A stretch of DNA of 64,000 nucleotides from a virus. The position numbers were made by a program, and so were the translations under genes. Shown in pieces: positions 61,014-64,000 of this stretch (positions are counted from its first letter, which is position 1; each line of letters opens with the position of its first letter). The notes under the pieces are model-generated. The model saw nothing but the letters and a program-made list of their open reading frames with translations. It did not search any database and was not told the DNA's origin. Location of the stretch: positions 74,255-138,254 of the IMG/VR virus record IMGVR_UViG_3300046559_000446, one strand, 5' to 3'.

Positions 61014-61383
61014 CTTGATCTCCCAAATTGTCGATGTTGAATACGGCGTTGTCGATTTTCCTGTCGAGGATCGCCAGAATCTCCGCGTATTCCTGCTGGA
61101 GCGCGAGGCGCAGCGCCCGATAGGCGTCCGCTTTGCTGGCGTACCAGGGACCGCCGGTGCCCTGGGCGTCGGTCCTGTCGGTCCTGCTGTAGCTGTGGGC
61201 GCCGGCCCTAAAGCAGCCTTGGTTGACTTTTCGGCTGTATGCGTCGAAGTTCCAGCCGGTCTGATTTAGATCGCTGGGGACCAGCCTGTGCAGGACGAAA
61301 TCGCGAAAGCGCATGGCGCGCGCTTCGTCCAATTGTTTGACGATGAGGTCGAACGCCGCTTTTTCGGCCTTGGTCATGGCCAT
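61003..61383 (-). CDS. Hypothetical protein
   Basis: 126 aa, TGATG coupling. Confidence 0.7.
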   Translation of the reverse strand: MAMTKAEKAAFDLIVKQLDEARAMRFRDFVLHRLVPSDLNQTGWNFDAYSRKVNQGCFRAGAHSYSRTDRTDAQGTGGPWYASKADAYRALRLALQQEYAEILAILDRKIDNAVFNIDNLGDQDER

Positions 61384-61841
61384 CAGCGCAGCCTCGCTCT
61401 GAACCCCAGCTTTTTGCTGGTGGCGTTGAACTTATCGACGGTCGCCCGCTTCAAATCGATGCCGGCTTTGATGGCGATCAGCGAAACGTAGACTTCCACG
61501 TCAGCCAATTCTGTCGCCAGATCGGCAACGGTGGCGCGCGAGCCATCGAGGCCCAGGCGTTCGCGCTCCAGCTTTTTGATCACGTTGCAGGCTTCGCCCA
61601 TTTCGCCGGCGGCGGCGTTGCCGTAATAGGACAGATCGAGCTTGTCGCTGTTCGTCCACTCAAGCTGGCGGGCGATGTTGGCCTCTTCCAGCGTGTCATA
61701 ATAGATGACAGGCTGGGCCTTTCTGGGTATGGGCTGCACCTTTTCGAGCACCCCGGTAATCAAGTTGTGGGCGACTGTTTGATCCATGCAAGCTTTATGA
61801 GCAAGCAACACGCTCATGGCTTCGATTTCTTCAGGGGTCAT
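61383..61841 (-). CDS. mazG: MazG-like nucleotide pyrophosphohydrolase
   Basis: AAAGEMGEACNVIKK...ELADV..Y...A...GIDL..A...KFN. Confidence 0.85.
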   Translation of the reverse strand: MTPEEIEAMSVLLAHKACMDQTVAHNLITGVLEKVQPIPRKAQPVIYYDTLEEANIARQLEWTNSDKLDLSYYGNAAAGEMGEACNVIKKLERERLGLDGSRATVADLATELADVEVYVSLIAIKAGIDLKRATVDKFNATSKKLGFRARLR

Positions 61842-61892
61842 GCTTGGGTTCCTCGTTTTTTGAGCGGGGGCGGATCTAGCCGCCCCCTGGGG

Positions 61893-62552
61893 TCAGACGG
61901 GTTGACGAAAAGCGACGATGCGGCGGATCGACACCATGCCGTAGCCGACATTGTGCCGGTGGTTGCCCGACAGCAGCAGGATCGACGAGGGATAGACTTT
62001 GGCGACGATCCCGATGTGATGGGGCAGGACGGCGACGGCGCCGACCCTGGGTGCGCTAGGCCGGCCATAGTGGGCGTAGGAGACGGCGGCGAGCGATCCC
62101 AGGCGGGAATAGCCGGCCTCTTTGAGCCACAGGCCCACGGAGGCCGCGCACCAGGGGCCATTGAAGCCGGTGAAATTGCCGCCGCCGACATAACGCTCCG
62201 CAACGTGCAGGAGGCGTGTGTCGCCGCCCAGGGACGCCGTGGGCGTGTAGAAACGAAAGCCGAACAGGCTGAAGCCCTGATCGGGTTCAGGGGCCACCGC
62301 CATCGCCGTGCGCGCATAGACGCGGCGCTGATAGTGATGGTGGTGCGCAACAGGGCGCCAGCGATGATAGTAGCGGCGAGGTTCACGCCATCGAGGCTTC
62401 AGGCTTTCGAAGGATTTCTCCTGCGCCTCCATGCCAAAAATGCGCCGGATGTTGAAATTTTGACTGGACGTTTGCGGCGGCGGGTCCACACTGGCAAATG
62501 CCGGCGAGGAACACGCCACGAGTAGAGCCGTGACGGCGAGCAGCTTTCGCAT
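61893..62552 (-). CDS. Secreted CHAP/NlpC-P60-like amidase (TIGR02594-like)
   Basis: Signal peptide; PWCAASV catalytic Cys; HHIGIV His; LSGN. Confidence 0.8.
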   Translation of the reverse strand: MRKLLAVTALLVACSSPAFASVDPPPQTSSQNFNIRRIFGMEAQEKSFESLKPRWREPRRYYHRWRPVAHHHHYQRRVYARTAMAVAPEPDQGFSLFGFRFYTPTASLGGDTRLLHVAERYVGGGNFTGFNGPWCAASVGLWLKEAGYSRLGSLAAVSYAHYGRPSAPRVGAVAVLPHHIGIVAKVYPSSILLLSGNHRHNVGYGMVSIRRIVAFRQPV

Positions 62553-62577
62553 CTTGCATCCTTTCTGGACATAAAAA

Positions 62578-62607
62578 GAGCGCGCCCTGCGCGAACAGGG
62601 CGCGCTC
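62578..62607 (-). terminator. Intrinsic terminator
   Basis: 12-bp stem gagcgcgccctg/cagggcgcgctc followed by TTTTAT on the minus strand. Confidence 0.75.
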
Positions 62608-62631
62608 GATTACTCAACTAGGACGTGACGA

Positions 62632-62994
62632 TCAGTGACCGGCGACGCCGCCGCCGACCGCAATCACGCTCGATCCGCCGCTGGAGGTGGCGCCGGCAAG
62701 GCCGTTGCCCGAAGATACGGCGCCCGTGGACGAAACGGACGAAGCCGTGCCGGCTCCCCCGCCGCCAGCCGCAACCGGGCCGAAGAACGTGCCGGTAGCG
62801 ACGCCGCCGCCACCCGCAACGCCGGTCGCGCCAGCGGTGGTGCCGCCAATCGCAGCCGCGTGGCCGAGCGAACCGACGACGGTCGTCGAGTGGGAGTTGG
62901 TGATGACGGTGCCGCCACCCACGCCGAAGTCGAGAGCGAAGGCCGGGGCCGCAAGCATCGACAGGCCGGCGGCGAGAACAAAGATCTTCTTCAT
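62632..62994 (-). CDS. Secreted Gly/Ala/Ser/Thr-rich protein
   Basis: GAGG RBS; signal peptide MKKIFVLAAGLSMLAAPAFA; mature part is almost uncharged and Gly-rich. Confidence 0.75.
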   Translation of the reverse strand: MKKIFVLAAGLSMLAAPAFALDFGVGGGTVITNSHSTTVVGSLGHAAAIGGTTAGATGVAGGGGVATGTFFGPVAAGGGGAGTASSVSSTGAVSSGNGLAGATSSGGSSVIAVGGGVAGH

Positions 62995-63004
62995 GCTATT
63001 TCCT

Positions 63005-63297
63005 CACGTGTGGTGCCAGGGAAACCGCCCTGGCGCGGATTTCAAGACTACCGCCCGCGACCACGAAACCGCTTATGTGACAGGTCGCGGACGGCAGCTT
63101 CTTGCTTTCGTGGCTGGGTCCGTTTGGAGCAAACCCAGGACGCCCCGCTCTCCACGGGGGACGCAAGATCTCTGCATGACCGCCGAGCCGGTGGGGACGA
63201 ACCCTTCACCTTCCCTCGGCGGTCAGCTTGCTTTCGTGGCTCGCTGATGAGCAAGGGCCACGCCCGCTCGGTTCGGCGCGCGGGGACGCAAGATCAG
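63005..63297 (-). ncRNA. Tandem three-way-junction structured RNA candidate (leader/intergenic)
   Basis: Two units UCUUGC-GU-P2-CGU..ACG-AAA-GCAAG with variable stems, separated by an 11-bp stem carrying a UUCG loop. Confidence 0.6.
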
Positions 63298-63998
63298 TTG
63301 GAGGCCGTCTTGACGCAGACGCCGGCGTCAGCAGACTGGCGGGCGCCCTTGGTGCCGCAGGCGGCGACGACGTACTGGTGGCCTTTCTTGTCGAAGTAGC
63401 TGGCCGAACGCTTCATGTCGAGCGTCACGGGCTGCGACTTTTCGCCGGGAACCTTGCCGTGATATTCGCCCTTGAAGACCGGATGGCCGTAAGGCTCGAC
63501 CACAGCGACCGTCTGCACGGCATATCGACCGATCCGACAGCGGACGCCAGAGGCGACCAGGGCCGAAGCTACTTCGTCGTCCTGGCACATGACCTGGATC
63601 GCGGCGTCACGCTGCCCGAAAGCCCATAGAGTGCGAGCGTTGAGGCGCTTGTTGCAAGGCCCGTCCTGCCAGGGAAAGCCAAGCGCCCCACCGCCGCCGA
63701 CAGCGGCGCCGCCCAGGGAGACGGAGCCATTGCAGCTTTCAATGCCGGCGGCGCTCATGCCGGGGGCGAACACCGACGGCGACTGGCCGGTGGTGGTCGA
63801 ATTGAAGGTGTTGGTGTTGGCCGCGCCAGACTGGTTGGCGTTGACGGAGCGGACGCCGACGTTCTGGCTGCTGTTGATGCGGCTGTTGACGTTGGAGTTG
63901 GAGCGCGAGGCCGAATTGGACTGGCTGGCCGACAGCGCGGTGTTGCGGTTGTTCTGGACGGGATCGGCAACAGCGGCGGAATTGGAGCGCGAGTTGGA
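63294..63998 (-). CDS. Asn/Ser-rich, Cys-containing protein (5' end outside the window)
   Basis: The frame is open to the window edge: SNSRSNS...NTNTFNS then PSVFAP...C...G...DGPCNKRLNAR.L...AAIQVMCQD. Confidence 0.75.
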   Translation of the reverse strand, partial: SNSRSNSAAVADPVQNNRNTALSASQSNSASRSNSNVNSRINSSQNVGVRSVNANQSGAANTNTFNSTTTGQSPSVFAPGMSAAGIESCNGSVSLGGAAVGGGGALGFPWQDGPCNKRLNARTLWAFGQRDAAIQVMCQDDEVASALVASGVRCRIGRYAVQTVAVVEPYGHPVFKGEYHGKVPGEKSQPVTLDMKRSASYFDKKGHQYVVAACGTKGARQSADAGVCVKTASN

Positions 63999-64000
63999 GA

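Follow-up and report, generated by a model that had tools for sequence, protein, structure and literature searches.

Intercistronic RNA structure in phages is known from the RNase III sites of phage T7, which are processing hairpins, and there RNA structure sets the expression of gene-distal cistrons. Variable tandem copy number is common for small ribozymes, and some orphan motifs of Rfam are tied to particular phage genes. The locus compared here with such systems lies on the minus strand at positions 63005–63297 of the window (the whole stretch of 64,000 nucleotides (nt) that was analysed), which is the last 64 kb of the 138,254-base IMG/VR virus record IMGVR_UViG_3300046559_000446. By self-comparison, this record consists of two related ~69-kb phage genomes placed head to tail (67–94% identity, depending on the segment), with copy A covering record bases 1 to ~69,250 and copy B the remainder; the locus sits in copy B. 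It fills most of a 300-nt untranslated spacer between a gene for a secreted Asn/Ser-rich protein and a gene for a Gly-rich protein, and holds two copies of a three-way-junction unit. The unit was confirmed as a genuine structured element on the gene-sense strand. It is a real, uncatalogued, modular structured-RNA family, which belongs among the orphan phage or intergenic RNA motifs and is not evidence of a new riboswitch.

Junction units and their covariation

Unit 1 (type a; 63225–63295, minus strand) and unit 2 (type c; 63099–63170, minus strand) were folded separately, and in both the minimum free energy (MFE) and centroid structures consisted of P1, the joiner GUC, P2, P3 (CGU/ACG, abutting P2) and the joiner AAA. 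For unit 1 (z = −2.4; covariance-model scores R1 of 93.9 bits and R2 of 83.9 bits), P1 is CUUGC (63292–63288)/GCAAG (63231–63227), J12 is GUC, P2 is CCCGC/GCGGG, J31 is AAA and P3 is CGUGGC/GCCACG with the conserved loop GCUCAUCAGC; its orthologues covary. Unit 2 (R1 31 bits, R2 49.7 bits) has the same P1, GUC and AAA core, with P2 as CCCCG/CGGGG carrying the conserved loop GUGGAGAGC and P3 as CGU..CUGGGUUUG/CAAAC..CCCAG..ACG, and in its counterpart in copy A one P3 pair is a G.U that is able to pair on the minus strand only. Exact direct repeats of 15 nt (63101–63115/63227–63241) and 14 nt (63157–63170/63282–63295), spaced by 125–126 nt, bear out the initial annotation, which had described two minus-strand units of ~70 nt with common junction nucleotides; the joiner that it read as GU is in fact GUC, of 3 nt.

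Orthologous loci, designated below by L numbers, were collected by pattern and protein searches of IMG/VR, through homologues of the upstream protein and their contigs. They provided 19 distinct units from ~10 related phage genomes or contigs, 16 of which were folded. The unit measures ~55–75 nt and has a core of P1 CUUGC/GCAAG, GUC, P2 CC(C)/(G)GG, P3 CGU/ACG and AAA, the first joiner being GUC in 18 units and GUU in one, and the P2–P3 spacing being 0 nt in all 19. Standard pairs occupied 97.0% of the 303 pair cells in the alignment, compared with 31.6–45.5% when the 3' partners were slid. Changes on both sides were found at six of the 16 pairs (P2 positions 3–5 and P3 positions 4–6, with GC, CG, UA, AU and UG types), and the covariation score was reached by none of 500 column shuffles. 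P1 presented three one-sided changes only, all of which still pair as wobbles (UA>UG twice and GC>GU). The MFE structure was the same junction in all 16 folded units, in each of which the distal parts of P2 and P3 were paired, wholly different as they are between unit types. The earlier suggestion that the distal stems differ in sequence yet pair and covary, with the junction nucleotides kept, thus stood in the enlarged set, and the conserved AAA joiners were likewise present in the homologues.

The choice of the minus strand in the initial annotation was also upheld. One-sided changes (all of those in P1 and many of those in P3 and in the long hairpins described below) are G.U or U.G on the sense strand, and the mirror junction of the antisense strand was kept in only five of eight units. 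The wobbles can pair on the sense strand alone, and both findings thus place the fold on the minus strand of the window, which is also that of the flanking genes.

Close relatives carry 0, 1, 2 or 3 units per leader, always upstream of a short hairpin, R, and of the Gly-rich gene. Two units are found in copies A and B, L008, L009 and L054–L057, three in L058 and L062, and one in L010, L011, L061 and L012 (in the last with an extra open reading frame (ORF) before the unit), while L013, L066 and more distant relatives have none; the element is dispensable. Three unit types, orthologous across genomes, each have their own conserved loop, namely GCUCAUCAGC in the P3 loop of type a, ..AACGCGCGC in the P2 loop of type b and GUGGAGAGC in the P2 loop of type c. 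Their order is a-b-c in the three-unit phages and a-c in copy B, with b only in L012 and a c-like unit only in the L010 type. In L012 (2910–3200, plus strand) the extra small ORF stands after the Asn/Ser-rich gene and ahead of the single type-b unit, and its frame does not close until it has passed through the entire unit and the hairpin behind it; this means either translation of the unit in that phage or an error in the called stop or frame. Relative to the window, contigs from soil and rhizosphere vary in the loops of the units, in the P3 bulge, in the linker and in the first long hairpin, H1, with no listed difference in the junction core; two of the H1 population changes match the L054-type stem. 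Where metagenome contigs have other unit interiors, they diverge precisely at the conserved ends.

The initial annotation had not recognised a known Rfam class, and none emerged from the window or the orthologous leaders. Rfam 15 (4227 models), searched by cmscan on both strands at E ≤ 10 over 61500–64000 and at E ≤ 5 over 11 orthologous loci, gave spurious matches only, the recurrent one (mir-2830) being explained by the terminator hairpin downstream. In a covariance-model search of five whole phage records the unit was found at this locus only (R1 31–94 bits, R2 43–84 bits), with a single weak extra match in a signal-peptide coding region. In a covariance-model search of 151 Hyphomicrobiales-order genomes the motif was not found, the one match lying within a response-regulator gene. 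A pattern scan of 596 Gb of genomes gave 15 matches, at chance level, and the two that scored with the model were in an ABC-transporter ATPase gene; a scan of JGI metagenomes gave nine, likewise no more than expected by chance, and those examined were in coding sequence or without P3. A looser core pattern matched 47 stretches in IMG/VR, among which the model fits the known clade only, and the literature gave no match when searched by sequence words or topic. As far as the searches reached, the motif belongs solely to a single small clade of uncultured phages of soil and rhizosphere. A separate stretch, on a 1424-nt metagenome contig of 45% GC that looks non-coding (L047:979–1055, minus strand; R2 29 bits), shows AUCUUGCGUCCC, an 11-bp P2, GGGCG and ACGAAAGCAAG, with no convincing P3 and with an intrinsic terminator ~80 nt downstream; chance could account for this match, or the stretch may be a remote relative that has degenerated.

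Module anatomy, gene context and source phage

Every unit is followed, after a gap of 0–1 nt, by a long imperfect hairpin that starts with CUG and has a lower stem of 11–18 bp, kept through different sequences (for example UGACCGCCGAG, UGGCCGCCGAUC, UGGUCGUCGGC and UGGCCGUCGAC). The inner hairpins end in ..CCAUG, followed by 8–14 nt of A/U-rich single strand. Because each unit carries its adjoining long hairpin, the repeating module is the junction together with the hairpin, ~110–125 nt in all. The order within the spacer is one of unit-hairpin modules, the R hairpin, the exposed GAGGA and the AUG of the Gly-rich gene.

H1 (63171–63226, minus strand; −32.4 kcal/mol) abuts P1 of unit 1. Its lower stem is a perfect inverted repeat of 11 bp, UGACCGCCGAG/CUCGGCGGUCA, above which come an internal loop and the hairpin GGUG-AA-GGG UUCGU CCC-CACC; the 3' end of H1, ..CAUG, is followed by an A/G-rich linker. 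The perfect 11-bp stem that had been placed between the units is present (63177–63187/63215–63225), and it is maintained through different sequences and G.U pairs in L008, L009, L054, L058 and L062. The terminal long hairpin, T (63041–63100, minus strand), has arms CUGCCGUCCGCGACC/GGUCGCGGGCGGUAG of 15 nt (63048–63062/63083–63097; 87% complementary, with two wobble pairs) and the loop UGUCACAUAAGCGGUUUCGU, and is followed by UCUUGAAAUC. Its stem is replaced in sequence and retained in pairing in copy A, L008, L009, L010 and L054, and most of the loops contain GUUUCG; T has no U-tract and was not called by the terminator scan. The R hairpin, GCCAGGG-CGGUUU-CCCUGGC (63015–63034, minus strand), lies 9 nt upstream of the Shine-Dalgarno sequence and occurs nowhere else in the phage record. 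It is the sole leader element also found in the unit-less relatives L013 and L066, and its stem covaries (GCCGGGG/CCCCGGC, GCCAAGG/CCUUGGC). Where the initial annotation had counted two more hairpins ahead of the ribosome-binding site, R is thus the one strong, conserved hairpin, and the second was not sustained.

Further structured sequence was observed in the same spacer. A multi-branched insert of ~185 nt stands between the last long hairpin and R in copy A (L002:1318–1512, minus strand, equal to record ~68244–68438) and in L055 (2497–2692), one variant of the L054 phage, and is missing from copy B; it has a ~17-bp closing stem, five inner hairpins and a T-loop-like segment GGUUCGAUCC, shows two compensatory changes between its copies, and was negative with ARAGORN and Rfam. 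In the three-unit phages, that spacer position is taken by a different structured insert of ~150 nt (L058:2600–2735 and L062:2305–2445), with the closing stem AUAAACAGGC/GCCUGUUUUAU, an inner GGGGCCUUCGGACCCC hairpin and no Rfam match. The 5' arm of R with its flank (CGCGCCAGGGCG) closely resembles the P2 loop of type b, its 3' arm and the start of P3 (CGCGCGCCCAGGGCG), and the two vary jointly in L012 and L058 and not in L062; this likeness could reflect a common origin or a potential for swapping partners.

The upstream gene, of which the 3' part was taken from the ORF list (63294–63998, minus strand), has as its product a secreted Asn/Ser-rich protein whose C-terminal domain contains Cys; the complete 265-aa form, which bears a signal peptide, was observed in the sister copy (L034:1570–2367, minus strand). 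The protein matches phrog_20531 (function unknown in the PHROG annotation), and its homologues are on metagenomic phage contigs only. Its UGA stop codon (63296–63294) stands 1 nt before unit 1, and across the window and the orthologous leaders the first unit starts 1–4 nt past the upstream stop codon. At the other end of the spacer, the Shine-Dalgarno sequence GAGGA (63005–63001) and the AUG (62994–62992) of the Gly-rich gene (together 62992–63005, minus strand) are mostly unpaired in predicted folds. The Gly-rich gene (62632–62994, minus strand) encodes a 120-aa protein that starts with a Sec signal peptide and abounds in Gly (27%), Ala, Ser and Thr; it is 78–95% identical among relatives, including those with 0–3 units. 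It has no Pfam or PHROG match, and the protein atlas gives hypothetical proteins only; a metagenome search with it found nothing, being swamped by signal-peptide patterns, and HMMER gave no homologue, for which the biased composition is the probable cause.

A strong intrinsic terminator (62570–62607, minus strand; 13-bp GC-rich stem, UUCG loop and UUUUUAU tail) closes the transcription unit after the Gly-rich gene. No sigma-70-type promoter was matched in 61300–64000 by a simple consensus scan, which other promoter types would escape. In L013 only ~20 nt separate the stop codon from the R hairpin, so that the upstream and Gly-rich genes appear to be co-transcribed. The co-oriented flanking genes and the terminator suggest that the sense strand of the spacer is transcribed. 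The three consecutive genes at 61893–63998 (minus strand) each start with a Sec-type signal peptide and form a secreted-protein block opposite the structural genes; the product of the third, 219 aa long, weakly matches a tail lysozyme (phrog_1259).

The phage is an uncultured, tailed double-stranded DNA phage of ~69 kb whose plus strand carries the genes for DNA polymerase A, primase, the large terminase and the portal. Its large terminase shares at most 39% identity with that of any cultured phage, the nearest being a Paracoccus phage, and its DNA is present in many soil and rhizosphere metagenomes. The region in copy A is 91% identical to that in copy B, apart from its extra ~185-nt insert. 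The record is labelled as complete with a direct terminal repeat, and its 99-bp 'terminal repeat' is the joint between copies A and B. Probably, strains that co-occur were joined in assembly to give a chimeric 138-kb record, whose length and completeness labels mislead.

Possible roles of the modules

The initial annotation saw in the locus a ligand- or protein-sensing leader with a mutually exclusive downstream pairing. As a tandem riboswitch, the junctions would be small-ligand aptamers, and ligand binding would govern the Gly-rich gene by way of an alternative pairing to the downstream hairpin; the conserved junction core, the variable stems, the tandem layout and the 27% Gly of the downstream protein, which invites the idea of glycine sensing, all suit such a device. 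The 8-nt complementarity on which it depends does exist (63061–63068 with 63106–63113 and with 63232–63239), and copy B and the L010 type hold the 8-nt complement of CCACGAAA/CUACGAAA in the T loop. The UUUCGUGG:CCACGAAA pairing, however, reaches 8 bp only in copy B and in the L010/L011/L061 type, which share the same type of T hairpin (in the L010 type the unit has a C>U change, which leaves one G.U); it falls to 5 bp in copy A, L009, L054, L058 and L062 and to 4 bp in L008, is absent in L012, and shows no compensatory change among the orthologues. A short UUUCG/CGAAA contact is possible on the grounds of sequence conservation. The junction and the T hairpin, moreover, coexist in both the MFE and the centroid structure of the 311-nt fold and so are not mutually exclusive. 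No conserved structure sequestering the Shine-Dalgarno sequence was found in the predicted folds of the leaders, and the hairpins after the units lack U-tracts, except for one UUUU in copy A. A pairing of the 5' strand of unit 1 with the Shine-Dalgarno region, seen in the 311-nt MFE structure of copy B, was discarded as it is not conserved in the orthologues. No Rfam riboswitch family, glycine (RF00504) included, matches any leader at E ≤ 10, the conserved unpaired core nucleotides number just six, and the searches of cellular genomes did not find the motif. Among close relatives whose downstream gene is nearly identical, the copy number runs from 0 to 3, which is not expected of a required metabolite sensor. 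Given the lack of a conserved switch pairing and of U-tracts, the exposed ribosome-binding site, the variable copy number and the narrow distribution, a metabolite riboswitch is the least probable of the explanations considered. A new class of small self-cleaving ribozyme, with the junction as a catalytic core cutting the polycistronic RNA, is very unlikely as well. The compact invariant core with freely varying peripheral helices and the variable tandem copies in a phage would fit, and the joiners GUC/GUU and (C)GAAA have the letters of the NUH cleavage triplet and GAAA strand of the hammerhead; but there is no CUGANGA box between helices one and two (P2 directly adjoins P3 in all 19 units, and the leader sense strand nowhere contains the box), the A15.1-U16.1 register is lost at a bulged G, the ribozyme models of Rfam find nothing on either strand, and the conserved core is smaller than in known classes. 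A hammerhead through the type-a loop CUCAUCAG was also rejected, that loop holding only the reverse complement of the CUGANGA box, on an antisense strand without GAAA.

The modules might instead form an array of processed, trans-acting phage small RNAs, in which ~125-nt modules are released and act elsewhere, perhaps sequestering a host protein or a defence factor in the manner of a decoy or sponge, with the spacer as their safe harbour. The closed 5' end (P1), the 3' hairpin and the 8–14-nt A/U-rich linkers between modules are in line with this idea, as are the conservation by each of the three types of its own loop and the presence, in some genomes, of two unrelated structured inserts (~185 and ~150 nt) in the same spacer. 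The modules nevertheless bear no likeness to a known decoy, and the resemblance to CRISPR repeats amounts to a GC-rich 5-mer; this explanation is considered unlikely. It is also quite unlikely, a little more so, that the element is neutral or acts at the DNA level, the conserved ends being recombination or duplication joints of a cassette-like repeat, or the fold being one of single-stranded DNA, with pairing persisting only because long untranslated spacers must stay folded. Copy number shifting by whole modules, contigs that branch exactly at the conserved ends with swapped interiors, and the narrow distribution all speak for it; against it, the core is invariant although the unit interiors have diverged beyond alignment within and between genomes, the compensatory changes, together with wobbles specific to one strand, point to selection acting on a single strand that folds, and the unit is not dispersed but confined to one locus per genome. 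No recombinase or nuclease gene was identified adjoining the locus, with the exception of an HNH endonuclease gene ~1.2 kb upstream in L054.

Several other identities were tried and rejected. ARAGORN found no tRNA or tmRNA. A coding or readthrough extension of the upstream gene was dismissed, as the differences in length among units are not multiples of 3 and, in L008, unit 1 is in another frame than unit 2; the frame past the stop codon is open in copies A and B, L008 and L009, and in L010 it meets a stop six codons in. A small ORF from the conserved CAUG after H1 is not conserved, L009 having a stop after two codons. CRISPR-repeat mimicry was set aside, the shared sequence being that same 5-mer and a non-conserved UUGAAA, and the sequence features of integron attC sites and k-turns are absent. 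A dispersed repeat (REP/BIME, BOX or MITE-like) does not accord with five whole phage records having one locus each, nor a ToxI-like type III antitoxin with unrelated unit interiors and a downstream Gly-rich protein that has a signal peptide and no family match.

The explanation tentatively favoured, although it is far from assured, is that the units are RNA-level modules that shape the processing, stability or relative expression of the Gly-rich mRNA. It draws on the invariance of the junction and on a layout of the processing type. The paired junction bases keep their identity too (CUUGC/GCAAG, CC/GG, CGU/ACG), and such invariance even in pairs is compatible with a recognition surface for a putative protein or RNase, or with a self-contained tertiary fold, and speaks against a metabolite pocket with an expression platform; a compact tertiary fold, for example with the AAA joiner docking on the P2 G-C pairs, fits. 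By analogy, the closed junction, the long imperfect hairpin and the short A/U-rich linker would correspond to the layout of intercistronic processing or stabiliser elements. The modules would then act at the RNA level on the polycistronic transcript, keeping the long untranslated spacer folded, and cleavage in the A/U-rich linkers or the long hairpins would uncouple the Gly-rich mRNA from the upstream cistron. Linker cleavage might also release stable structured RNAs of ~125 nt, and the number of modules would tune expression rather than switch it.

Some observations weigh against assigning the modules such a role. The thermodynamic z-scores of individual units are modest (−0.5 to −3.4), P1 is without any double compensatory change, and none of the sequencing runs listed as containing the region is recorded as RNA. 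The motif comes from one small clade, and part of its conservation may be due to shared ancestry or repeat recombination and not to selection; the tolerance of G.T on the sense strand would also suit a structure of single-stranded DNA. A broader and more speculative proposal, to which only a low probability is given, makes the GUC/AAA junction the active core of a new class of small self-cleaving ribozymes, or a phage RNA aptamer or decoy in three specialised versions. The aptamer or decoy form could capture a host or phage protein or a small ligand; either form would be delivered as a processed array, with the spacer as an intercistronic 'RNA harbour' that also hosts other structured inserts.

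Should the junction have a specific activity or partner, it would represent a new RNA family from soil phages, which are poorly explored for non-coding RNA. In that case the locus would further demonstrate the capacity of phage intercistronic spacers to accumulate several structured RNA modules of independent kinds. The family is tractable (~60 nt, a six-nucleotide core and natural variants with 0, 1, 2 and 3 copies in otherwise near-identical contexts), and the motif is worth adding to RNA family catalogues and is a good experimental candidate.

Comparison with described systems

The type III hammerhead ribozyme (RF00008 and relatives) has in common with the unit a three-helix junction, a GUC/GUU joiner that fits NUH, (C)GAAA before the closing helix, a size of ~60–70 nt and variable tandem copies in phage; without the CUGANGA strand, with an extra G in the A15.1-U16.1 register and with no Rfam match, the unit is not a member of that class. 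The tandem glycine riboswitch (RF00504) and other tandem riboswitches likewise place two to three three-way-junction domains in series in a 5' leader, here ahead of a Gly-rich product. The units differ from them in having no model match, no glycine core and no conserved expression platform, in occurring in 0–3 copies and in being found in one phage clade. BOX, REP/BIME and ToxI elements share with the modules the variable number of structured repeats and the intergenic or leader position. BOX and REP elements, however, are dispersed over many loci, whereas the present unit has one locus per genome, and ToxI consists of near-identical 34–36-nt repeats upstream of a ToxN-type nuclease, whereas here the interiors differ and the gene product is a secreted Gly-rich protein.

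Closer in layout are the intercistronic processing and stabiliser hairpins, long and imperfect, with internal loops, and lying between cistrons beside single-stranded linkers. The sites of the T7 RNase III type differ from the modules in being single hairpins without a conserved three-way junction, and cleavage of the present modules is only proposed. The orphan motifs of Rfam (Weinberg-type motifs, such as Mu-gpT-DE and skipping-rope) resemble the present motif in being defined by comparison and covariation, in being tied to particular phage genes and in having no function assigned; the present motif is distinguished from them by its modularity, its three subtypes, its obligatory following hairpin and the lack of a match among the 4227 models of Rfam 15.

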